From Candidatus Gottesmanbacteria bacterium (GTDB lineage: Bacteria; Patescibacteriota; Microgenomatia; UBA10105; UBA927): DNA of 64,000 bases. The translations under genes were made by a program, and so were the position numbers. The notes beneath the pieces were generated by a model that worked only from the letters and a program-made list of their open reading frames with translations, was not told where the DNA came from and ran no database searches. The stretch is taken from the NCBI GenBank assembly GCA_016218255.1, contig JACREN010000002.1, positions 4,029 through 68,028 on the forward strand, given 5' to 3'. Each line of letters opens with the position of its first letter. The first letter of the stretch is position 1. Positions 5,830 through 63,874 of this stretch are shown here, piece by piece.

Positions 5830-6266
5830 GGACTCTTGACCCCGAAATTATGGGCTGGGGTCTGCGATGCATCAGGGGTGCAGCTGTTACTTGCGGGCGT
5901 TTCTGCTTCAAGGTACGCGCTTACACAGTAGCCGTAATAACTGCCTCCCGAAACATCAGTTGCTTTATACCGGTATACATAATCGGGATCTTTTGGGTCT
6001 GCTGGGATAGACGGCATGTAGGTAGCCACTAAATCAGCACTTAAATTAGACATATCCGTCCAGCTACCGGCCCCGGTACTGGGATAATACCCATTGTCGG
6101 TTCGGTACATCTCGATAGCCGACCGGATCTGCTCGACGTCGCTTTTCCGCTTTGTATCACGGGATCTACGGTTTACCGATCCATACGATACGATACCTAT
6201 AGCAGTCAATATTGCGATAATAGATATCGCAACCAATATCTCCATGAGGGTAAATCCTTTTTTCAT
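5826..6266 (-). CDS. GspG/PulG-like pseudopilin
   Basis: MKKGFTLMEILVAISIIAIL...RDTKRKSDVEQIRSAIEMY (T2SS-G-like N-domain). Confidence 0.75.
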   Translation of the reverse strand: MKKGFTLMEILVAISIIAILTAIGIVSYGSVNRRSRDTKRKSDVEQIRSAIEMYRTDNGYYPSTGAGSWTDMSNLSADLVATYMPSIPADPKDPDYVYRYKATDVSGGSYYGYCVSAYLEAETPASNSCTPDASQTPAHNFGVKSP

Positions 6267-26449: not shown

Positions 26450-27274
26450 ATGAAAATAGACGGCAAAGCAATTGCGGAACAGATACTGACAATGTGTTCC
26501 AAACGCGTACTGGATCTGAAGCATAAAGGCACGATACCAACTATGGCCGTCATCCAGGTTGGAGACGATCCGGCATCCACTGCCTACATCAACCAAAAGA
26601 AAAAGGCGGCAGAGCGCATCGGCGCTTTACTCATACATAAAAAATTACCCACTGGGGTAACGTATCAACATGTTAACATGTTAATATGTGAATACAATAC
26701 AAATCCAGCTATCCACGGCGTCATTATCCAACAGCCATTACCACACACACTCGGAGACAGCGCAACCCTCATAGGCCAAATAGACCCAAAAAAAGATATA
26801 GACGGTTTTTTGCCGAACTCACCATATCCGGTTCCCGTCGCGTCAGCGGTGGTCGAAATTCTGCGTTCCGTTTTTTCCCAATTTGACTCGTCACTAAATA
26901 CGAAAAATATTGTTGTCATCGGCAGGGGAGCAACCGCGGGAAAACCGATTGCGGATTTGTTAATTTCGCGCGGACTCAACCCAACAGTCATTCATTCACA
27001 AACAAATAATTCCAAAGAAATTATAAAAACCGCGGATATCGTAGTAAGTTGTGTAGGGAAACCAAATATTGTACGACGAGATAATATAAAAAGGGATGCC
27101 GTTCTGATCAGTGTCGGCATCTGGCGAGACAGCAGCGGCAAGCTCCACGGTGATTACGAAGAGGATGCAATCAAAGATATCGCCGGATCTTACACGCCTA
27201 CACCCGGAGGAGTAGGACCTGTCAACGTAGCCTGCCTCATGCAGAATCTTATTTCGGCTGCAATAAACAGTTGA
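26450..27274 (+). CDS. folD: bifunctional methylenetetrahydrofolate dehydrogenase/methenyl-THF cyclohydrolase
   Basis: MKIDGKAIAEQI...VIQVGDDPASTAYINQKKKA; C-terminal TPTPGGVGPVNVACLMQN. Confidence 0.9.
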   Translation: MKIDGKAIAEQILTMCSKRVLDLKHKGTIPTMAVIQVGDDPASTAYINQKKKAAERIGALLIHKKLPTGVTYQHVNMLICEYNTNPAIHGVIIQQPLPHTLGDSATLIGQIDPKKDIDGFLPNSPYPVPVASAVVEILRSVFSQFDSSLNTKNIVVIGRGATAGKPIADLLISRGLNPTVIHSQTNNSKEIIKTADIVVSCVGKPNIVRRDNIKRDAVLISVGIWRDSSGKLHGDYEEDAIKDIAGSYTPTPGGVGPVNVACLMQNLISAAINS

Positions 27275-53133: not shown

Positions 53134-53526
53134 ATGTTACCATATGACTATATGAAACAATCGGTCAAACATATAAAAAAACTACGGCCCTACCCGTCTC
53201 CTGCAATGAAGGAATTATTTAATGCAGCCCTACTCCTTCGAACACCACGCGAGGCATCTGATTTTTTTCGGGATTTACTGACGATCGCAGAATTAACCGA
53301 ATTTGCGAGCCGGTGGCAGATAGTCAAACGACTCAACAAAGGAGAATCCTACCTGAAAATTGCCACGGAATTAAATGTCTCAACAACCACCGTCACCCGC
53401 GTTGCCCAGTGGCTTCATGAAGGAATGGGAGGCTACCGCACGATTGCTACCCGTGCATTCGGCAAAAATCCCGACTACCAGCCGGAAAAACCACTCATCC
53501 CCCGCGGGAAACGCTGGGTGCGATAA
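53134..53526 (+). CDS. TrpR-related YerC/YecD-family HTH protein
   Basis: DLLTIAELTEFASRWQIVKRLNKGESYLKIATELNVSTTTVTRVAQWL matches the YerC/YecD (Trp-repressor-like) helix-turn-helix core. Confidence 0.65.
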   Translation: MLPYDYMKQSVKHIKKLRPYPSPAMKELFNAALLLRTPREASDFFRDLLTIAELTEFASRWQIVKRLNKGESYLKIATELNVSTTTVTRVAQWLHEGMGGYRTIATRAFGKNPDYQPEKPLIPRGKRWVR

Positions 53527-53609
53527 CGCCTCGCTTATTGCTCAGGATTCCCAAATTAACTCTCCCAAAAAAACAAAAGAATAACTCTTTTTCATTACGC
53601 CTTTACCAC

Positions 53610-53638
53610 TTGACACCATTTTTATAATATTGTAATAT
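53610..53638 (+). promoter_or_regulatory. sigma-70-like promoter (TTGACA-17bp-TAATAT) for the 53890 operon
   Basis: Perfect -35 TTGACA 53610-53615, 17-bp spacer, -10 TAATAT 53633-53638. Confidence 0.45.
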
Positions 53639-53639
53639 A

Positions 53640-53667
53640 TTAACGTGTTAACATGGTAACACGTTAA
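53640..53667 (+). promoter_or_regulatory. near-perfect 28-bp palindrome (operator-like) immediately downstream of the -10
   Basis: TTAACGTGTTA-ACATGG-TAACACGTTAA: 11-bp inverted arms, 26/28 self-complementary; contains TGTTAACAT core. Confidence 0.45.
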
Positions 53668-53889
53668 TACACTGATATATGAGCCCCTTCATCACTGTTT
53701 TTGCTGTTATAAATAAATATCTTCGACCAGAAATAAATACTGGCGTTTCTTCGCGCGTTTCCCCAGTTTTCCATCACCACCTCACCCGCTAATCTGCGCG
53801 CGGTCGAGGCGAGATTTCATATTTTTTCCACCTTCTCTTCTTAACCGTACGTAGATACCGTTTCTACGCACAAAAGGGGGGTGAAAAAT

Positions 53890-54915
53890 ATGAAGCTCGA
53901 ATTTACTAGAATGAATAACATAGATGGAGATCCGCTTTTGATACGCGGCAGTGAAGCGGCGCTTGCATCAGGCGGTGCATATATCGTCACACAGGATACC
54001 GAACGCCTCCTCCTGCGACTGGGTGTTATCTTACCCGATCGCGACATCCAGACATTTAATACCGCAGTACTGCAGACGCTTTCGCCTGTATTTAATGTTG
54101 TTATGACGGACGAAAACCGCTTTTATAATCGGCTCGGCACTGCGTTTGTTTATGCCTGTATCAGGGCGAAATCCGAAAACGCTGAAGTCATACTTCTTGA
54201 CCGATTTATTAGCGCGCCGGGTCTACCGCCAGATGAATTTTCAACCCTTAGTATCGGACGCGTAACGACACCTATCGGAGAAATACTTGGGCCGCGCCCC
54301 GGCGATCCGGATATAGATGAGCAGCTTGCCATCATAGATGCAAAGATGAGACAAAAGGGAACAAATAAAATCATACTCGTAGACGACGGCCTTTCTACCG
54401 TTGATGCCCTTGAGCCATATGAGGAAATCGCCAACACCCAAGGGTGGCAAATCGTAGATATGACATTGGGAGTATTACCGTCTGCTGGCAACGGCGACGA
54501 GTGGAACACAAAAGCCGCTGCAATGATAATTACCGGCAGATCGCCTGTCTGCGTACTACCAGTAACGTCTCCTCTCGATTGGATTTGCCAACGTGATTTT
54601 ACTCTTTTTGGCGGAAAAACGGTTGCAATGGACGGCGTCGGGTACCCATTGACTGCTCCGTACTTTAGCCCCTTTACCGGAGGACAAAGTGCGAGCATAC
54701 CGACCGGACGACTGAATGAGGTAAGTCAAAAAATCCTGCTTGCCAATCAAGCCATGATTAGAGCAATCGATCGTCAAATCGGACAACCATTGACGTTTAC
54801 TGACGTGTTAAATGCCGGCTATGGGCTACCCGTAAGTTTATTAGGCAAACTTCCGATACCTTCGCCGGAAGATAGTGTAACTGAATATATAGGTACCGCG
54901 TTGGCATGCATATGA
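53890..54915 (+). CDS. hypothetical protein with PRTase-like nucleotide-binding motif
   Basis: 341 aa; KIILVDDGLSTVDAL resembles type I phosphoribosyltransferase PRPP-binding loop (hydrophobic4-DD-x3-T); SD AAGGGGGG upstream of ATG at 53890; stop overlaps next start. Confidence 0.45.
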   Translation: MKLEFTRMNNIDGDPLLIRGSEAALASGGAYIVTQDTERLLLRLGVILPDRDIQTFNTAVLQTLSPVFNVVMTDENRFYNRLGTAFVYACIRAKSENAEVILLDRFISAPGLPPDEFSTLSIGRVTTPIGEILGPRPGDPDIDEQLAIIDAKMRQKGTNKIILVDDGLSTVDALEPYEEIANTQGWQIVDMTLGVLPSAGNGDEWNTKAAAMIITGRSPVCVLPVTSPLDWICQRDFTLFGGKTVAMDGVGYPLTAPYFSPFTGGQSASIPTGRLNEVSQKILLANQAMIRAIDRQIGQPLTFTDVLNAGYGLPVSLLGKLPIPSPEDSVTEYIGTALACI

Positions 54916-55676
54916 AAGAAATGGAATCGATACCATCGCTGTGGTACCAATCAGATCCGCGGCGGCTCGACCAGACAAACATACCTCTTGGATGGGTACG
55001 TGAGGTCGTGCCGCTGCGGGCATACGCCCAAAACCTGTTCGCCATTGTCGGCACTTCAGGATGCGGCCGGGACACGCTCATTGACGCCATGATGGTTCTC
55101 TCTCCCACACTGGCCCGTGTGCGGCGGACGACGACCCGGCCCTCTCGATATCCCAACGAATCCGTCCGTATTCTCTCCCTGTCTGAGTCATCGTTTACCG
55201 CAATACAGCAAAATCAAAAAATATTGTGTCCGTACCGGTATCCTCCAAATGGAAAATGGTACGGCATTTCACAGGATGAATTGAAAATAATAAAACAGGG
55301 ACCGGCGATCCTCGAAGGAACCGCAGAAATTCTTCCGCTTAAAATGCTGCTTCCGGAAAGCACCGCAGTCATCATTGTCCCGCGGTCATTCAATCAATTA
55401 GAACAGCAGCTCATAGGCCGCGACGGCGAAACTGCGGAGACACTCAAGCGCGTCGAGCGATCAAAACGGGAGCTTACCATCCTATTGACACGCTTACCCC
55501 GACTGATTGAGACAAACGCAATCAATGGCATAGTGATAAACGATGATACACCCGCAAATGTTGGCTCGCGTACGCTTATGCAAATGCAAGGCAATATGTG
55601 GCCAACCGCGATACCACAAAAATTACAGACGGATATTACAGACTATTTATCACAATGGAATTGTACTAGCGTATGA
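54906..55676 (+). CDS. guanylate kinase/PhnN-fold P-loop kinase with atypical Walker A (GTSGCGRDT)
   Basis: Aligns along full length with Gmk: LFAIVGTSGCGRDTLIDAM ~ LYIVSAPSGAGKSSLIQAL; RRTTTRPSRYPNE ~ HTTRQPRPGE; NGIVINDD ~ YLIVNDD; Lys-to-Arg and Ser-to-Asp in P-loop (PhnN has GKDS). Confidence 0.6.
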   Translation: MHMKEMESIPSLWYQSDPRRLDQTNIPLGWVREVVPLRAYAQNLFAIVGTSGCGRDTLIDAMMVLSPTLARVRRTTTRPSRYPNESVRILSLSESSFTAIQQNQKILCPYRYPPNGKWYGISQDELKIIKQGPAILEGTAEILPLKMLLPESTAVIIVPRSFNQLEQQLIGRDGETAETLKRVERSKRELTILLTRLPRLIETNAINGIVINDDTPANVGSRTLMQMQGNMWPTAIPQKLQTDITDYLSQWNCTSV

Positions 55677-56611
55677 AACCTATCCTGTACATAGACACCG
55701 ATGCTGGAGTTGACGATATCGTTGCGATTTGTATGATCATCGCCGCTGATACATTTGATGTACGGGGTATAAGTATCGTAAACGGGGTGGCTTCGGTATC
55801 CCGCGGCATACGGAATCTTTCCCGCATTCTGCCGACCATAACACAATCAATAATTCCACTATATAGTGGGATAAATCAAACCAGCCAAAACTCAAGCGTT
55901 CAATTTCCCCCAATCGACCGAATTCGTGCTGAATCTTTTGCGCTATTCCCCGGCATATCCTTCCCTCCCTCATCTGGCAAATTCGGAAATATAAAAGACC
56001 TGCAAAAAAGCATCGCAGCACAAAATGAGTCGGTTACTTTTCTTTGTCTGGGGCCGCTGAGCAATATTGCGTATTTGCTACAAAACACCAGCATCCGTAC
56101 GGTTGTCCGAGAATTGGTTATCATGGGTGGCGCAGTCAATGTGCCCGGCATCGTGCCACCCCGTAATATCTCGGAGTATAATTTCAGGCTGGATGCTGTT
56201 GCTGCAAACATGATTCTCCGATCATCAATTCCCAAAAGACTTATTCCCATCGATGCAACGAAAAAAGTACCTGCAACTATGGCCTCTGCGTCTAAAACCA
56301 TGCAGTCTACCGTGCAAATGTTTTTCAACGATGTATCTGCCGCCCAACCGCTATCCAATGCTGGCAAAATTATCCGTTCCATAATACTGAATAACACGGG
56401 CGATTTTCAAAACTTCTACGACCCGCTTGCAGCAGCCACCCTGCTCAGTCGCACTATAACGTGCCAATGGCACCCGTATAATCTTTCTGTATCGACAAAA
56501 GGATATTGTAAAGGGAAAGTGCTCGTTGGAAAAAACAAAAATACAACACAGGTCCCTGAAACCATCAATGCAGGGGCGTTTTATTCACTCATGATACAAT
56601 CACTGCAATGA
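55673..56611 (+). CDS. inosine-uridine-preferring nucleoside hydrolase family protein
   Basis: N-terminal Ca-binding aspartate cluster ILYIDTDAGVDDIVAI (DTDPGxDD signature); 312 aa. Confidence 0.75.
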   Translation: MKPILYIDTDAGVDDIVAICMIIAADTFDVRGISIVNGVASVSRGIRNLSRILPTITQSIIPLYSGINQTSQNSSVQFPPIDRIRAESFALFPGISFPPSSGKFGNIKDLQKSIAAQNESVTFLCLGPLSNIAYLLQNTSIRTVVRELVIMGGAVNVPGIVPPRNISEYNFRLDAVAANMILRSSIPKRLIPIDATKKVPATMASASKTMQSTVQMFFNDVSAAQPLSNAGKIIRSIILNNTGDFQNFYDPLAAATLLSRTITCQWHPYNLSVSTKGYCKGKVLVGKNKNTTQVPETINAGAFYSLMIQSLQ

Positions 56612-57744
56612 TACGAAAAACAACAGCTGCAACCGCACTTTTGATCACCAACCCTACAAATATACGGTATCTCACCGGATTTACGGGCGCAGCTCCCGAG
56701 GAACGGGAGGCGTATGTCTTGTTGACTCAAAAAACGCCCTATTTGTTTACAAGCGCGCTATACCGTGAGTCAACAAAAAATCTCAAATCACAAATCCCAA
56801 TGACCAAACAGGATACGATAACGACTGTTGAAATTTCACGCGAAGATCCCTTTACGAAAAAACTTACTGAAATTCTCAAAAAAAATGCGTGCGTTCGCTT
56901 AGAATTTGAGGAGAACAACCTCACCGTAGCAGAACTTGGAAAGCTGAAAAAGGAACTTAAGGGAATCACTCTCATCCCAACACAAAACAAAATCGAAGAA
57001 CTGCGGGTGATCAAAAAAGATGATGAAATTACCAACATCCGTGCCGCAGCAACATGCACGGATCGATGCTTTGATTATATCCTCGGCAAACTCAAACCAG
57101 GAATTTCAGAAAGACAAATCGCGTGGGAAATCGAATCATACATCAGAAAAAACGGCGCGTCTCTCGCCTTCTCGCCTATCGTCGCGTTTGGAAGGAATCC
57201 TTCCATGCCTCATTATCAACCAAAAGACAGATGCAAGCTGACCGCTAACAACTTAATTCTTCTGGACTTTGGCGCGCGCGTCAACGGCTACTGCAGCGAT
57301 ATGACGCGGGTGGTATTTACGGGCAAACCAAAAAACGAATGGCTGCATGCTTACAATACAGTTTTTGAGGCCCAATCCGCTGCAATCAAATACCTGCAAG
57401 CTCAAGGGCGAACCTTAAATCCACAACTCTTAGGCACCAAAGCAGATCAAATCGCGAGGGATGTTATTGAGCGCGCTGGTTTCCCTACCTATCCCCACTC
57501 TCTCGGCCATGGCGTAGGACTGGACATACACGAAATTCCCCGCCTCATATCCCAGAAGGATCGCATCCTTCCAAAAACTCAACCACAGAAGGATGCGATC
57601 CTTCTATCTGGCATAGTGCTCACTGTCGAGCCAGGTATATATATGGAAGGCTCCTATGGCATCCGGATTGAAGATTTGGTACTCTTAAAACAAGATGGCA
57701 TTGAACTGCTTTCCAAAAGTCCAAAAAACATCATCATTCTATAA
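56608..57744 (+). CDS. M24B Xaa-Pro aminopeptidase
   Basis: HSLGHGVGLDIHEIP metal-ligand motif; creatinase-like N-domain. Confidence 0.85.
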   Translation: MIRKTTAATALLITNPTNIRYLTGFTGAAPEEREAYVLLTQKTPYLFTSALYRESTKNLKSQIPMTKQDTITTVEISREDPFTKKLTEILKKNACVRLEFEENNLTVAELGKLKKELKGITLIPTQNKIEELRVIKKDDEITNIRAAATCTDRCFDYILGKLKPGISERQIAWEIESYIRKNGASLAFSPIVAFGRNPSMPHYQPKDRCKLTANNLILLDFGARVNGYCSDMTRVVFTGKPKNEWLHAYNTVFEAQSAAIKYLQAQGRTLNPQLLGTKADQIARDVIERAGFPTYPHSLGHGVGLDIHEIPRLISQKDRILPKTQPQKDAILLSGIVLTVEPGIYMEGSYGIRIEDLVLLKQDGIELLSKSPKNIIIL

Positions 57745-57773
57745 AAATTGTTCTTTCGTAAGTAGCATATATA

Positions 57774-57793
57774 TTAATATGTTAACATATTAA
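57774..57793 (+). promoter_or_regulatory. perfect 20-bp palindrome TTAATATGTTAACATATTAA upstream of VOC-hisS operon
   Basis: Exact self-complement; shares TTAA..TGTTAACAT core with the 53640 operator-like site. Confidence 0.4.
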
Positions 57794-57815
57794 TATATTA
57801 CCATATACAACGAAT

Positions 57816-58208
57816 ATGAATACCTCTCTGGAGTGGGTCATCTTGATAACTGAACAGTACACTGCAATGAAAGCGTTTTATGAAAAAACGCTTGGCTTGC
57901 CTATCAAACGGGATGTTCCCGGAGAAGAATTTACGCAGTTTACATTACAAAATTGTAATATAGCGATATACGGAAAACGATACGCGGAAACGTTAGTTGG
58001 CAAAGACAAAATAGGAACTCCCGGCAGAGCCATATATAGCTTTGCCGCATCGGACGATATCGATCTTCTCTATCAACAATTAAAAGCGAAAGGTGTACAA
58101 TTTATAAAAGAGCCAGAAACCCAACCATGGGGACAGCGGACAGCATACTTTACCGACCCTGACGGAAATATCTGGGAAATACAGCAGTGGATATCTAAAC
58201 CAGCATGA
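57816..58208 (+). CDS. VOC (glyoxalase/bleomycin-resistance) family protein
   Basis: 130-aa beta-alpha-beta-beta-beta fold pattern; C-terminal YFTDPDGNIWEI. Confidence 0.7.
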   Translation: MNTSLEWVILITEQYTAMKAFYEKTLGLPIKRDVPGEEFTQFTLQNCNIAIYGKRYAETLVGKDKIGTPGRAIYSFAASDDIDLLYQQLKAKGVQFIKEPETQPWGQRTAYFTDPDGNIWEIQQWISKPA

Positions 58209-59416
58209 ACACTATTCAGACATTAAAAGGTTTTCGTGATTTTCTACCGAGGGATGCTGCACTTCGCAATTTCCTGAAAAATAAAATGGCGGAAATCACC
58301 TCCTCATGGGGATACGAACCGATTGAAACACCGACACTCGAACCGCTGGAACTTTTTGCCGGAGAAATCGGCGAAGACGAAAAATTATTTTTCTCTTTTG
58401 AAGATCAGGGCGGAAGAAAGGTCGCACTCCGATATGACCAAACCGTGCCAACATGCCGCGTGATCGGCGAATATGCCAATGAGCTGGTCTTTCCGTTTCG
58501 GAGATACCAAGTGCAGTCTGTATTCCGCGCTGAAAAACCGCAGCGGGGAAGATACCGCGAATTTACACAATTTGACATTGACATCTTCGGCATTGCCTCC
58601 CCTGATGCTGACGCAGAAGCCATAGCAGTAACACTGGATGTGTATACAAAACTTGGATTTCATGACGTTTGTGTGATCGTCAACAACCGGGATTTATTAA
58701 AAGCGCTCCCGTATGAAGCGCTCGTGGCGATTGATAAGGTAAAAAAAATTGGCGAGGATGGCGTCATCAACGATATGATAGCCAAAGGCATACCAGAAGA
58801 AAAAGCACAGGAATATTTGAAATACATCAAGACTGTAAAACCGGATCGAACCATACAAACCATTTTTGGATATTTAGCGAATGCCGGCTTCAAAGACAGC
58901 GCATACCGCTTTGAACCCACACTTGCCCGCTCATTCTCCTACTCTCAAGGGCCAATCTGGGAAGTCGTACTGCCGGGCTACAGCGCAGGATCTGTGGGTG
59001 GCGGCGAACGCTATGACGGAATGATGAAACGCATAACCGGCAAAGACATCCCCGCCACGGGCATCGCATTCGGATTTGATCGGACGATGGAAGCGCTTAT
59101 TGAATACAATCTGGCACCAGTAAATCGCCAAACCACGCAAGTGCTCGTCAGTGTATTTTCCGAAAATGTATGGGAACAAGCAATCAAAATAAGTTCCGAA
59201 ATCCGATCAGCCCAAATACCCACGGAACTGTTCCCGGATCCCAGGGCAAAGCTAGAGAGGCAGCTTAAATACGCCGACCGGAAAGGCATTCCCTACGTCA
59301 TTATCCAGGGGCCGGAAGAAACGAAAAAAGGAGTCGTCAAACTCAAAGATATGAAAAACCAGTCACAGGAGGAATTAACCGTCGAAGAAATTATTACCAA
59401 ACTGAAAGCAAACTGA
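58205..59416 (+). CDS. hisS: histidine--tRNA ligase
   Basis: N-terminal TLKGFRDFLP; class II motif 3 GGGERYDGMM; anticodon-binding C-domain. Confidence 0.9.
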   Translation: MNTIQTLKGFRDFLPRDAALRNFLKNKMAEITSSWGYEPIETPTLEPLELFAGEIGEDEKLFFSFEDQGGRKVALRYDQTVPTCRVIGEYANELVFPFRRYQVQSVFRAEKPQRGRYREFTQFDIDIFGIASPDADAEAIAVTLDVYTKLGFHDVCVIVNNRDLLKALPYEALVAIDKVKKIGEDGVINDMIAKGIPEEKAQEYLKYIKTVKPDRTIQTIFGYLANAGFKDSAYRFEPTLARSFSYSQGPIWEVVLPGYSAGSVGGGERYDGMMKRITGKDIPATGIAFGFDRTMEALIEYNLAPVNRQTTQVLVSVFSENVWEQAIKISSEIRSAQIPTELFPDPRAKLERQLKYADRKGIPYVIIQGPEETKKGVVKLKDMKNQSQEELTVEEIITKLKAN

Positions 59417-59423
59417 TCGCACT

Positions 59424-60392
59424 ATGTCCCCTCGTCTGTCTGCTTATCTCATGCTTCTCATTGTTTCCGTCATCTGGGGGGTCGCAGGACCGGTCATCAA
59501 ATTTACGCTTCACGATTTTCCGCCGCTTATCTTTCTCTCGTACCGGTTTGCCATAAGCGGGGTCATTGCCCTCGTCTATTTTGCCACGACCAAAACGCGC
59601 TTCCCGTCTAAACCAAAAGATATTGGTCTGGCAACGATATATAGTATATTTGCCGTCACATTGGCACTGGGACTTCTCTTTTTTGGTTTTGACAAAACAA
59701 CCTCACTCACCGGCACTCTACTCTCTGCCATGGCGCCCATAATCGTCGTCGCCGCCGGAGCTATTTTTCTCAAAGAACACGTCACGAAAATCGAACGTGC
59801 AGGCATAACTATAGCATTTGCCGGCACACTCATAACCGTCGCAGGGCCCCTCTTTAGCGGATCATCAGGATCCGTGCTGGGATCGCTCGAGGGAAACGGC
59901 CTTATCATTCTCTCCATTTTTGTCGATGCCGTGGCGACATTAGCTGCAAAAGTCATGGTCCGAGACCGATTTTCACCCACCACTCTGACGCATTTTTCTT
60001 TTATTATCGGGTTTGTCAGCATCTTTCCGTTTGCCCTTATGTCCCACTCTTGGCCAGCAATTCTTCAGACTATTCAAAAAGCGCCTATTACCGCCCATTC
60101 TGGAATCTGGTTTATGGCAATAGCATCCGGCACACTGGCATATTCGCTCAGAAACCGAGCACTCAAAACCATAGAGATGGGAGAAACTACGGTATTTTCC
60201 TATCTCTACCCCATCTGGGCCGCACCGCTTTCAATTTTTTGGCTTGGGGAAAAACTCACGGTTCCGTTTATCGTGGGTGCCTGCATAATCGCCGCAGGCG
60301 TATACATAGCCGAAAACAAACGACGCCATAAACACAGTCCGAAGCGCGCCGTCTTCCATGCACGGCGAAGATATGGTAAAATACACACATGA
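59424..60392 (+). CDS. DMT-superfamily (EamA-like) transporter
   Basis: 10 TM helices in two EamA-like halves. Confidence 0.7.
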
Positions 60393-60697
60393 AACAAGGC
60401 ATTCATCCCCAGTGGTATCCTGGTGCAACAGTTGTCTGCGCATGCGGCAACAGCTTCACAATCGGCGCAACCAAGCAGGAACTCCGCGTGGAAATCTGTT
60501 CCAAATGCCATCCTTTCTTTACCGGTGAAATGAAATTTGTCGATACACTGGGCCGCGTTGAACGCTTCCAGCAAAAGCAAAAAGCTGCAGTGTCCACCGC
60601 CTCCGCACTGGCTGCAAAGAAAAAGAAAAAAGCCGAACGGGAAGAACAACGCCGATCTCCGAAATCCCTCAAAGACATGTTAATGGGACTTAAATGA
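60389..60697 (+). CDS. rpmE: 50S ribosomal protein L31 with extended Lys-rich C-terminal tail
   Basis: [23 protein letters not shown]...[10 protein letters not shown]; 102 aa (typical about 70). Confidence 0.85.
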
Positions 60698-61392
60698 ACT
60701 CTGATGTCGCCATTCTCGAATTTCGACCCGGGCCGGGAGGCGAAGAAGCCCGCATATGGGCCAGTGACCTCATGCGCATGTATACACGCTATGCGAATGT
60801 CCTGGGCTGGAAGGTAGAGCAAATAAGCGACACCGCCATCCGCATCCGCGGAACGGATGCCTTCACCAAGCTCCAATATGAAGCAGGCACCCACCGCGTC
60901 CAACGGGTTCCGGTAACGGAACGGCAGGGCCGCATCCATACGTCCACAGCAACGGTGGCGGTACTGCCGGAAATACCCGAAACTGAAGTGCAAATCCGGA
61001 ATGATGATCTGGATTGGAGCTTTTTCCGTGCAGGGGGACATGGCGGTCAAAACGTAAACAAGGTCTCTTCTGCAGTACGATTGACACACAAGCCCACCGG
61101 TATCGTCGTAGCGTGTCAGACAGAAAGGGATCAAATACAAAACAGAAACGTCGCGCTCTCCATGCTTCGGGGGAAATTATGGGAACAGCAGGAGTTAATA
61201 AAAGCCAAAACGCTTAGCGACAACCGTAGTGTCATCGGACGGGGTATGCGCGCCGAAAAAATCAGAACCTACAACTTCCCTCAAAATAGAGTAACGGATC
61301 ACCGGATAAACAAAAGCTGGCATAATCTGGAAACAATTATCGAAGGCAAAATGCAAAAAATCACAGAAGCGATGATCGCGATGCGCGAGTAA
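60694..61392 (+). CDS. prfA: peptide chain release factor 1-like protein lacking N-terminal domain 1
   Basis: RF1-specific PVT tripeptide ([16 protein letters not shown]), GGQ motif ([12 protein letters not shown]), C-terminal [15 protein letters not shown]; only 232 aa; start overlaps rpmE stop so no room for domain 1. Confidence 0.75.
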
Positions 61393-61398
61393 GCCCCT

Positions 61399-62571
61399 TT
61401 ACTCCCCCTGGTTTCCCAGCGTCACCTTGACCAACCGGTCTTTACCGTCCCTCCATACAGAAATCGTCATAACATCTCCTGCTTTTTTCTTGGCGATCAC
61501 TTTCGCAAGTTCTGCATTATCTCCCGCAAGACGCACGTCATCTATTTTTGTAATGATATCCCCTTCCTCAATTCCGAATTGTTCCGCAGGGCTTCCGGCA
61601 ACGACCTCAATCACATACGCACCCTCCGGGATATCGTTAAGAATCCCCACATCGCGGGATACGGTTTTGTACCGTACACCCAGAAACGGCCGGTTAAACT
61701 GCCCGGTTGCGTTAAAATTCGCAAGCGACTCTTTAATCACATTGATGGGTATCGCAAACCCGATATTCTGCCCGTCGCCCGAAACCGCTGTATTCACCCC
61801 GATAACCTGCCCGGAAGAATTCAGAAGCGGCCCGCCGGAATTACCCGGATTGATAGCGGCATCGGTCTGAATGACATTGTCCAAACGCTCCACATATCCT
61901 TCAAAGGGGCTACCAGCCGTAATACCTCGCCCAACGCCTGAAATTACCCCGGTGGTCACCGTGTGCCGGAATTCCCCGAGCGCCGTACCGATAGCTATAG
62001 CCAACTGACCAACTTTGATGCTATTGGAATCACCCAGCTCAACCGGAGATAATCCCGACGCAGTGATCTTAAGAATTGCCAAATCATTGGCCGGATCCCG
62101 GTAGATTTTCACCACATCAAATGACTTGTCATCTTTGGTGATCACTCGGTATTTTGCCGTGGCATCTGCCACCACATGTTTATTTGTCACAATCAACCCA
62201 TCGGCCCCTACAATGAAACCGGAACCAATGTCCTGCTCCAACTTCTGCGTTTTTCCCGGTGTCCTCCGGAATGGGGAAAACGGGTCAAACGGATTGATCT
62301 CCAGCATATCGCCTAACTGCCGGGTTTTTGTAATGCCCACGGTCACCACCGAGGGAGACACACGTTCTACTGCATCAATAACGACTGACTCTTCCGTAAC
62401 CACCCGGATATTTTCGCTGCCAGGAAGCGTAACTGAAGATTTGGCAAAATCCGGCAAACGGACGTACTTTTCCAAAAATTTCCAGTTAAGACCGAAAATA
62501 CCGGAACTTACGATGCCGCCGACAATAAGAAAAGCTGCTGCAACCAGAAGGAGTGTTCGATGAATTTTCAT
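61399..62571 (-). CDS. HtrA/DegP-family S1C serine protease with PDZ domain
   Basis: Signal anchor, catalytic GNSGGPLLN, C-terminal PDZ. Confidence 0.9.
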   Translation of the reverse strand: MKIHRTLLLVAAAFLIVGGIVSSGIFGLNWKFLEKYVRLPDFAKSSVTLPGSENIRVVTEESVVIDAVERVSPSVVTVGITKTRQLGDMLEINPFDPFSPFRRTPGKTQKLEQDIGSGFIVGADGLIVTNKHVVADATAKYRVITKDDKSFDVVKIYRDPANDLAILKITASGLSPVELGDSNSIKVGQLAIAIGTALGEFRHTVTTGVISGVGRGITAGSPFEGYVERLDNVIQTDAAINPGNSGGPLLNSSGQVIGVNTAVSGDGQNIGFAIPINVIKESLANFNATGQFNRPFLGVRYKTVSRDVGILNDIPEGAYVIEVVAGSPAEQFGIEEGDIITKIDDVRLAGDNAELAKVIAKKKAGDVMTISVWRDGKDRLVKVTLGNQGE

Positions 62572-62578
62572 GCAGAAA

Positions 62579-63874
62579 TTATTTTAACAACAGCTCTACA
62601 GCTTTTGCAAGTTGAGCATCCCCTGTGGCGTTCGTCACGTCATCAATTTTTACTTCCACGTCCGGCTTTACACCGATTTTATGTATCCAGTCGCCCTTGG
62701 GCAATAACCATTTCGCAGTGGTAATATGCAGTCCTGCTCCACCACCCAGTTCCTGTGGTGTCTGAACCGACCCCTTGCCAAACGACGTCTCACCCACGAG
62801 AGTCGCGCGCTTATAATCACGGAGGGCTCCTGCCACGATTTCTGATGCCGATGCACTGCCCTTGTTTATTAAAACGATCAGCGGTATATCCAGCAAGCGA
62901 CCCTGACGAGCCACTGTATAGTCCTGTTTTGTATTGTCACTGTTGGCCTGTGATACGACAACTCCGCTTTTGATAAATTCACTGGCTATAAACACCGCGC
63001 CCTCAAGATATCCGCCAGGATTATTCCGTAGATCAAAAATCATGCCCTTGAGCTTCCCATTTGCGCGTTGAGCAACGAGCATATCTTCTACCGCCTTATT
63101 CCACTCATCATTAGTTCGGTCGCCGAAACGGGAAAGCCGCAGATAGGCAACCTTACCAGGCTTGGCGGAAAGTTCACGGATACCGGGAGTACCGGAAATT
63201 TCGACAATCTCCGAGGGCGTCTTTACCCAGGTCTCGACTGACGGCACAACAATGGTATCGCGAACAATGGCGATATCCACTGGTTTAGTACTTTTTTCAT
63301 GGAAAATATTTAATGTCACAGTGGTACCGCGTAAACCCCGAATTTTTGTGACCGCCTGCTGAACACTCCAACCTGCTGTCTCCTCACCATCTACCTTCAA
63401 AATCGTATCACCTGCCAATATGCCTGCTTTTTCTGCAGGATTTCCTTTGAGAGGAGCTACCACGATGACCCGATTTTCCCGCATACCCAATTGTGCACCG
63501 ATACCTTCAAATGCACCGCCTAAATCTTCTTTAAATTCCTTGTTCTCCTTTGGCGGCAAAAATGTAGTATAGGGATCACCCAAAGAATTCACCATGCCAG
63601 ATATGGCGCCCCAGGCCATTTTCTGGGGGTCCATGCTCGCCCGATCGATATAAAAACGGAACAATCTGCTCCATACGTCCCAAAACAAAGAAAAATCAAC
63701 GGCGGCGGTTGCAGGAGTTTCCTGATGCAGGATTAGGCGCTTTTCCGGGCTTACGGAAATCTGTGTTTTCCGAAGGCCCAACTGATAACCGGCGCCTCCA
63801 GCCACAAAAAGCAATGCTAAAATAAGAACACTATTTCTTATCCGGGAAAATGGAACTATACGCATAGTATCCAT
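62579..63874 (-). CDS. ctp: S41-family C-terminal processing peptidase
   Basis: PDZ then catalytic Ser block INKGSASASEIVAGAL; 431 aa with N-terminal anchor. Confidence 0.85.
   Translation of the reverse strand: MDTMRIVPFSRIRNSVLILALLFVAGGAGYQLGLRKTQISVSPEKRLILHQETPATAAVDFSLFWDVWSRLFRFYIDRASMDPQKMAWGAISGMVNSLGDPYTTFLPPKENKEFKEDLGGAFEGIGAQLGMRENRVIVVAPLKGNPAEKAGILAGDTILKVDGEETAGWSVQQAVTKIRGLRGTTVTLNIFHEKSTKPVDIAIVRDTIVVPSVETWVKTPSEIVEISGTPGIRELSAKPGKVAYLRLSRFGDRTNDEWNKAVEDMLVAQRANGKLKGMIFDLRNNPGGYLEGAVFIASEFIKSGVVVSQANSDNTKQDYTVARQGRLLDIPLIVLINKGSASASEIVAGALRDYKRATLVGETSFGKGSVQTPQELGGGAGLHITTAKWLLPKGDWIHKIGVKPDVEVKIDDVTNATGDAQLAKAVELLLK

Follow-up and report, generated by a model that had tools for sequence, protein, structure and literature searches.

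What does a tightly conserved operon do, and which signal switches it, when its first gene lacks any family assignment and its second is prone to mis-annotation as a guanylate kinase? The question arises in the Candidate Phyla Radiation (CPR), which makes up a large share of bacterial diversity and whose metabolism has been deduced almost wholly from annotation. We analyzed one such locus in a Candidatus Gottesmanbacteria bacterium (contig JACREN010000002.1, positions 4,029 to 68,028 of the forward strand). The window is this whole stretch of 64,000 nucleotides, and all coordinates below count from its first letter; genes and leader elements lie on the + strand, and operators are given without strand. 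Behind a gene for a TrpR-like regulator, the operon encodes a protein with a phosphoribosyltransferase (PRTase) fold (gene 1), a P-loop protein with the fold of guanylate kinase (Gmk) and of the ribose-1,5-bisphosphate phosphokinase PhnN (gene 2), and an IU-type nucleoside N-ribohydrolase (gene 3). An earlier note on this DNA had proposed a self-contained nucleoside salvage route. Our results point, with a probability of roughly 0.6, to one CPR operon that is switched by histidine supply and whose three ribose-handling enzymes belong to new sub-families. The folds and regulatory devices of the locus are known ones; the way they are combined is undescribed.

Regulatory signals upstream of the operon

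The regulator gene (53134–53526, 130 aa) encodes a TrpR-like protein of the YerC/HisR family. The protein matched PF01371 (E 1.4e-18) and TIGR02531 (yecD_yerC; 57.5 bits, over the cutoff of 42.2), in agreement with the YerC/YecD assignment made earlier, and its best match among solved structures was 3G1C, the HisR of E. eligens (E 8e-13). In B. subtilis, yerC is HisR, a histidine-dependent repressor of the TrpR family with 20-bp palindromic operators (PMC9413887). L-histidine has been shown to be the co-repressor for R. gnavus HisR only (PMC9413887). In 9 of 14 loci (related loci are designated by L numbers), an orthologue of the regulator gene adjoined the PRTase-like gene or lay close to it; the distant L018, in which the regulator gene is transcribed divergently, is among them.

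The sigma-70-like promoter and palindromic operator that the earlier note had described were both located. The promoter reads TTGACA-17-TAATAT (53610–53638; 10 of 12 consensus matches). Its −10 element is abutted by a candidate operator array of three overlapping TTAAYRTGTTAACAYRTTAA-like sites at 8-bp offsets (53632–53669), which includes a 12+12 inverted repeat (53638–53669). TTGACA was present at the same place in L001, L009, L010, L013 and L018. In nine loci (L001–L003, L007, L009, L010, L013, L014 and L018), the operator motif followed TTGACA and preceded the PRTase-like gene, and a palindromic variant was found in L004 and L011. L017 carries two near-perfect boxes of the published HisR consensus upstream of hisR-HAD/PRTase-hydrolase-hisS. 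Within the window, the 20-bp operator consensus had eight matches in three arrays, against 0.03 expected by chance.

The second candidate operator (57769–57798) is a 12+12 inverted repeat enclosing the 20-bp palindrome TTAATATGTTAACATATTAA, a perfect copy at 57774–57793 with no mismatch to the consensus. It stands before an ATGA-coupled pair (57816–59416) consisting of a VOC/glyoxalase-fold gene (57816–58208) and hisS, the gene for histidyl-tRNA synthetase (HisRS; 58205–59416). As in the HisR system, a 20-bp palindromic operator is found here at histidine-related promoters, and VOC-hisS is presumed to be a second unit of the same regulon. In L004, a homologue of the VOC gene product (33% identity) is encoded next to the regulator gene instead of hisS.

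The third operator-like array (26657–26692) lies inside the folD coding sequence (ORF 26450–27274). It, too, has three sites that overlap with 8-bp offsets, and the best of them differs from TTAAYRTGTTAACAYRTTAA by one mismatch. The array may be a regulatory site within the gene, or the similarity may arise by coincidence from the encoded peptide YQHVNMLI. Between operator and leader open reading frame (ORF), L001 (5719–5748) and L004 (4219–4248) carry a perfect or near-perfect 12+12 inverted repeat (ATTCTACACTTCTA..TAGAAGTGTAGAAT) that has no counterpart in the window.

Leader peptide and hairpins

The leader of approximately 250 nt upstream of gene 1 contains an ORF of 37 codons (53679–53792) encoding MSPFITVFAVINKYLRPEINTGVSSRVSPVFHHHLTR. 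The peptide ends in FHHHLTR before the stop codon, and its three consecutive His codons occupy 53772–53780. Homologous leader ORFs with two or three His codons near the stop were found in L009, L010, L001, L011, L004 and L012, and the endings in this group read ..HHHLTR, ..HRHLTR, ..RHQNHI, ..RHQPHA, ..CHHSSV and ..RHHTYS. Leaders of independent lineages showed the same feature, namely MVNLSITHLHHHIA in L015, which ends in HLHHHIA, and MLRTRTAVHHPLA in L016, which ends in VHHPLA. As background, of 2118 short ORFs from these sequences only 2.55% had at least two His among their last eight residues. The locus has the hallmark of a His leader, clustered His codons in a short ORF just upstream of regulatory hairpins.

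Two hairpins were predicted in the leader of the window. Helix A (53744–53811) pairs 53744–53758 with 53796–53811 over 14 bp in the RNAfold minimum-free-energy structure. It brackets the His codons and the leader stop, its GC-rich arms are conserved in relatives, and it may have a regulatory role. Helix B (53816–53894) pairs 53816–53842 with 53872–53894 over 23 bp and buries both the Shine-Dalgarno (SD) sequence GGGGGGTG and the AUG of gene 1; the probability of being unpaired from SD to AUG was 0.02. In L013, L015, L016, L017 and L018, a hairpin followed by a T-run, judged by eye to be terminator-like, lies directly upstream of the PRTase-like gene, and the leader of L008 contains a comparable element at a greater distance from the gene. 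In a folding test with a ribosome masking the L015 His codons, the terminator gave way to an antiterminator, as in textbook attenuation.

RNAalifold gave a weak consensus of −6.55 kcal/mol for six leaders on a poor alignment, and z-scores against shuffled leaders were −1.46 for the window and −2.76 for L001. A search for the Rfam His leader (RF00514 type) gave no match in the window (E ≤1) or in five loci (E ≤0.5). A riboswitch was also considered for the leader; there was no credible Rfam match, and the conserved CCATCA...CTAAT block turned out to be the His codons and stop of the leader ORF.

These results suggest two layers of control. In the first, the HisR/YerC-type repressor, whose gene and candidate operators were found, would act on the tandem palindromic array that abuts the −10 element. 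In the second, scarcity of His-tRNA would stall the ribosome at the His codons, and the remodelled leader would then allow expression. For the window, L013, L016 and L018, this switching mechanism of the leader is inferred.

Conservation of the gene module

All ORFs of the earlier note exist where it had placed them. Gene 1 (53890–54915, 341 aa) starts at ATG 53890 behind GGGGGGTG, and its reading frame reaches back to GTG 53881. Gene 2 (254 aa) probably starts at 54912 and ends at 55676; we placed its start there rather than at 54906, as claimed before, because all orthologues begin with MKE in the alignment. The gene 1 stop codon (54913–54915) consequently overlaps the gene 2 start as ATGA. 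Gene 2 and gene 3 (55673–56611) overlap in the same way at 55673–55676. The stop/start overlaps reported earlier are thus real, with one start codon moved, and the three coupled genes were joined by a fourth that had been overlooked. A gene for an M24 Xaa-Pro peptidase (56608–57744) is coupled to gene 3 by a third ATGA overlap (56608–56611), so that every junction from gene 1 to the peptidase gene is of this kind, and the peptidase gene is probably the last of the transcript. It shows identical coupling to the hydrolase gene in L004. Its membership in the pathway is doubtful, because in L017 that gene sits elsewhere. A weak Rfam match to RT-3 RNA inside the peptidase gene (56866–56979; 22.7 bits against a gathering threshold of 40.5, E 0.03) is most likely due to chance.

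The earlier note had asked for gene order to be compared across related genomes. The order PRTase-like, Gmk-like, hydrolase was kept in all 13 related loci, down to 28–33% identity, and the hydrolase gene came after the PRTase-like gene in every locus. Scans of GTDB genomes and of JGI metagenomes gave one locus each. Genes 1 and 2 form a single polypeptide in seven representative proteins (P0024, P0027 and P0029–P0033), in L008, L013, L015 and L016. Because they are one polypeptide in several lineages, the products of genes 1 and 2 are predicted to act together as a unit.

In L017 and many distant relatives (e.g., L018), there is no Gmk-like partner; the PRTase instead forms one protein with a HAD phosphatase resembling pyrimidine 5'-nucleotidases. 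Some relative loci have both the kinase-like protein and a HAD phosphatase. HisRS is encoded directly 3' of the module in L001, L004, L008, L013, L015 and L017. In L016, a gene for a HisA-like isomerase follows the hydrolase gene in the same leader-controlled operon. The 347-aa protein encoded after this gene was examined as a relative of gene 1 and proved to be an unrelated, low-complexity membrane protein.

That the genes stand together through colinearity of CPR genomes, or as a mobile defence or secondary-metabolite cassette, is largely refuted and hardly tenable, for although most CPR module loci share the colinear flanks DnaB ... HisRS-EamA-L31-RF1, the fusions, the ATGA coupling and the adjacency of PRTase and hydrolase genes in the unrelated genomic contexts of L016 and L018 show a linkage beyond colinearity, and the module has a fixed chromosomal position with no flanking mobility genes and no PADLOC matches of note. 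On comparative evidence, we take it as established that the N-ribohydrolase, the PRTase-fold protein and the P-loop or HAD partner of the latter belong to a single functional unit, and that this unit carries regulatory signatures of histidine control, shared with hisS.

Properties of the three enzymes

The product of gene 1 is identical to a hypothetical protein of Candidatus Gottesmanbacteria. It has an alpha/beta core with the topology of a type-I PRTase, so that the PRTase fold suspected for this 341-aa protein was found despite the lack of a Pfam or NCBIfam match; its C-terminal approximately 110 aa remained unmatched. Close relatives were limited to 12 proteins among 5.8 billion, and a profile search of 1.84 billion cluster representatives yielded 267 relatives. 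When 100 family members were scanned, 41 matched PF00156 (best E 1.1e-8), 28 had a HAD domain and 6 a guanylate-kinase domain. The motif IILVDDGLST, which had been likened to the loop that binds phosphoribosyl pyrophosphate (PRPP), is present in the translation. Its acidic pair, D165-D166, is invariant in close relatives and kept in at least 90% of the wider family; the G-x-T of the 5-phosphate-binding T/S-G-x-T turn is absent. Distant HAD-fused relatives retain DDGxF[ST]G.T. These findings identify gene 1 as a type-I PRTase-fold enzyme of a new family. Its predicted reaction is the condensation of PRPP with a nitrogen base to an N-ribosyl-5'-phosphate.

Gene 2 scored below the cutoffs of the Gmk and PhnN models: 19.9 bits against PF00625 (cutoff 25.2), 42.1 against Gmk TIGR03263 (160.45) and 40.2 against PhnN TIGR02322 (156). 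Its best profile match to solved Gmk structures had an E of 4.7e-7. The Walker motif reads G[ST]SGxGRDT (GTSGCGRDT in the window, as quoted earlier), with Arg in place of the Lys of GxxGxGK[ST] in all ten orthologues. Fused gene 1-gene 2 forms have the Arg in six of seven cases, the exception being P0030 with Lys, and the Asp after the Arg is not conserved among them. The earlier view that this P-loop is closer to PhnN does not hold, given the equally weak scores for Gmk and PhnN and the unconserved Asp.

In an alignment with 3tr0, the guanine-contact positions of gene 2 read Arg, Cys-Pro-Tyr-Arg and Gly/Thr and are not conserved; the corresponding guanine-contacting residues of yeast Gmk are Ser34, Glu69 and Asp100. 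As in Gmk and PhnN, gene 2 still has lid arginines, a YG motif and the phosphate-binding TTR..R motif. Unlike those enzymes, gene 2 has an added conserved RxRR cluster, which makes its substrate site unusually Arg-rich, and a 40-aa N-terminal extension, is fused to a PRTase in relatives, and lacks phn neighbours, since no phn gene occurs in any module locus examined. One source names a fused gene 1-gene 2 form guanylate kinase. Our comparison bears out the atypical character of the kinase-like protein, and gene 2 is, as judged from these features, not an ordinary Gmk.

The substrate that gene 2 would bind or phosphorylate is a ribosyl compound with several phosphates. We slightly favour a PhnN-like reaction, from ribose-1,5-bisphosphate to PRPP, over phosphorylation of a nucleoside monophosphate (NMP) to the diphosphate (NDP), because a PRPP-forming kinase would fit the HAD phosphatase that stands in for it or beside it in relatives, and with which an NMP kinase would compete. 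Residues 1–40 (54912–55031; SIPSLWYQSDPxRLxQTxIPLGWV) are almost invariant in unfused forms, lie outside the kinase fold and had very low confidence in the AlphaFold2 model, whose overall confidence (pLDDT) was only 52.6. They may dock the protein onto the PRTase.

Gene 3 is clearly an IU-type nucleoside hydrolase, as had been claimed, with a PF01156 match of E 1.9e-42 (146.4 bits against a gathering threshold of 34.2). The DTDAGVDD motif noted before corresponds to the DxDxxxDD signature, and GPLSN and E-Y-N..D are conserved. In group I IU-nucleoside hydrolases, a catalytic His precedes the Ca-binding Asp. Gene 3 lacks this His-Asp pair and has Y249-D250 in its place, which is invariant in all nine module-linked hydrolases. 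The enzyme would cleave an N-riboside into base and ribose.

Discussion

We consider histidine limitation, not nucleosides, the likely inducing signal of the operon, because the regulator belongs to the HisR family, the leader peptide contains His codons and a second operator precedes hisS. The earlier note had asked whether nucleosides induce the operon, and the same three observations probably speak against such induction. Similarity to the HisR regulon lies in a TrpR-family regulator that exceeds the YerC/YecD cutoff and has 3G1C as its best structural relative, in the 20-bp palindromic operators at promoters, one of them before hisS, and in the published HisR consensus of L017. The likeness to his attenuators lies in a run of His codons within a short leader ORF and in the regulatory hairpins behind it; the L015 leader adopts the fold of a classic attenuator. 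Differences are also clear. The genes controlled here are not known genes of histidine biosynthesis or transport, the operator TTAAYRTGTTAACAYRTTAA occurs in tandem at 8-bp offsets with a consensus of its own, and the leaders contain only one to four His codons and do not match the Rfam His leader. Moreover, the leader of the window clade ends in an SD-sequestering hairpin rather than a terminator, and repressor and leader peptide are joined on one operon, unlike in known his regulation. Our literature search found nothing relevant on this gene combination, on HisR with a nucleoside hydrolase, on ribosylhistidine or on phosphoribosyl transfer to imidazoleacetate.

Several observations weigh against a histidine-controlled operon of ribose-handling enzymes. 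HisR paralogues of other specificities are known (PMC9413887). With the exception of L017, the operator consensus found here differs from the published HisR consensus. The leaders of L013 and L018 have a single His codon, and simple folds with a masking ribosome opened neither the SD hairpin of the window nor the terminators of L013, L016 and L018. The general view of CPR bacteria is that they are amino-acid auxotrophs. In the lists of Pfam families for the other parts of the window, which end at 25 families and cover a small sample of 64 kb, there was no gene of his biosynthesis, nor one of pur or pyr biosynthesis. For the enzymes, gene 1 had no Pfam or NCBIfam match even at E ≤0.1, PF00156 included, and its loop, DDGLST[IV]DA, has lost the G-x-T of the 5-phosphate loop in the window clade. 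A Lys-to-Arg replacement in the Walker motif usually cripples phosphoryl transfer; the kinase activity of gene 2 is uncertain because of its Arg P-loop, and the protein may bind its substrate rather than phosphorylate it. Finally, if PRTase, phosphatase and hydrolase acted one after another in a line, the sequence would be futile without some modification of the base in between.

The reading proposed earlier, a self-contained route of general nucleoside salvage that responds to nucleosides through the TrpR-like regulator and in which the kinase makes NDP or PRPP, is possible but doubtful. Its enzymatic part is the stronger one. The three folds match a hydrolase-plus-PRTase route, which purine-auxotrophic protozoa use for salvage, the genes are coupled and conserved, and no gene of de novo nucleotide synthesis is among the Pfam families listed for the window. 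The IU Ca2+-type N-ribohydrolase motif and the type-I PRTase fold recall the purine salvage of trypanosomatids and the bacterial RihA/B/C enzymes with Apt, Hpt and Upp. The formal logic, riboside to base and then base plus PRPP to nucleotide, is also the same. Unlike in those systems, the genes here are tightly coupled and partly fused, the PRTase represents a new family, carries an additional C-terminal domain and has a changed 5-phosphate loop, Tyr replaces the catalytic His of the hydrolase, the partner is an Arg P-loop kinase-like protein or a HAD phosphatase, and control is of the histidine type. That every module member has Tyr instead of this His points to an unusual leaving group, and the loss of the Gmk guanine-binding positions in gene 2 speaks against a kinase of this route. 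L008 and L017 encode ordinary small PRTases separately. The regulatory signals indicate histidine. A 5'-nucleotidase-like HAD fused to the PRTase, as in relatives, would undo salvage and agrees poorly with a simple salvage direction. The enzyme folds and conserved coupling of the earlier proposal stand, nothing shows a closed nucleoside-to-NMP-to-NDP route, and as an account of what the operon is for the proposal is probably incomplete.

Under histidine limitation, an operon controlled in the way we favour could serve nucleoside or ribose scavenging with histidine as a starvation signal, replenish the purine and PRPP spent in histidine synthesis, or belong to an undescribed histidine-linked pathway. 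An unlikely but specific version is that the PRTase/P-loop pair and the Tyr-type hydrolase, under HisR and a His leader, form an unrecognised histidine-pathway module in presumed auxotrophs, either as a non-orthologous replacement of the ATP-phosphoribosyltransferase front end or for recycling of purine and PRPP. The more detailed form seems slightly less probable still. In it, the PRTase would act on an adenine nucleotide held by the Gmk-like domain and so replace HisG, or the module would be a branch that recycles or disposes of 5-aminoimidazole-4-carboxamide ribonucleotide (AICAR) and restores PRPP and purine. The dual control of histidine type, hisS within the same presumed regulon and the HisA-like isomerase in the attenuator-controlled operon of L016 are consistent with histidine metabolism. 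So are the operator-like array inside folD, whose product supplies formyltetrahydrofolate, and the HAD phosphatase and AstE/AspA-like Zn-amidohydrolase partners, which have formal counterparts in histidine pathway chemistry. All of this support is by association. Against it, neither the Pfam families listed for the window nor the flanks of the CPR loci include another his gene, CPR bacteria are considered to be without amino-acid biosynthesis, and the N-ribohydrolase has no assignable role in the known pathway.

PRTase and HAD phosphatase pairs also occur in nucleoside natural-product pathways of the toyocamycin/tubercidin type. There, as in the relatives of gene 1, a PRTase is fused or adjacent to a 5'-nucleotidase-like HAD, a pair that would give the free riboside from base and PRPP. 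The present module differs in being a core chromosomal locus of reduced CPR genomes without tailoring enzymes, in the hydrolase that follows and would cleave a riboside, and in its presumed co-regulation with hisS.

Salvage of queuosine or queuine, in which a QueK-like hydrolase would feed tRNA-guanine transglycosylase (TGT) and the leader His codons would report the decoding by queuosine-modified tRNA-His, is very improbable. Queuosine hydrolases of the IU family are known, tRNA-His carries queuosine at position 34, and the first His codon of every leader is CAU; CAU is, however, the commoner His codon in this genome anyway (60 CAT against 52 CAC). The window does contain a TGT gene (PF01702, E 2.4e-138), one ORF within 28666–49439 or 59424–63874. 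Neither a PRTase nor a kinase is known to be required in queuine salvage, and the regulator family and the hisS operator indicate histidine itself. As an observation in its own right, the TGT gene implies that the organism uses 7-deazaguanine tRNA modification, including that of tRNA-His.

If control by HisR-type repression and a His leader holds true, the operon would represent undescribed histidine-linked ribosyl chemistry in CPR bacteria, or a scavenging of nucleosides and ribose for which histidine serves as a general signal of starvation. The leader-peptide control element is apparently new and lies outside the phyla with known ones. Gene 2 represents a new P-loop family in which a conserved Arg takes the position of the Walker Lys. 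The natural fusion proteins are convenient for biochemistry.

Accessory genes and minor features

Neither the HAD nor the AstE/AspA partner of relatives was detected in the window by tblastn. A HAD gene and a gene for an AstE/AspA-like zinc hydrolase precede the trio in L004 (4471–5972) and L012 (166–1700), and the AstE/AspA-like gene comes after the trio in L006 (2879–3667), L008 (8701–9378) and L013 (9705–10379). The best NCBIfam match of this hydrolase was aspartoacylase, at 71.8 bits and under the cutoff.

Small proteins encoded beside the hydrolase in relatives showed no homology from one lineage to another, with one exception, a Cys-rich protein of 79 aa (MSKNLEVCCDPDCEWFQV...) that L011 and L012 have in common. 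This protein had no family match and is absent from the window. Its genes (L011 7226–7465, L012 4467–4706) are overlap-coupled to the hydrolase gene, and a possible relative (..CNAECIWFQ..) is encoded at 6128–6412 in L003.

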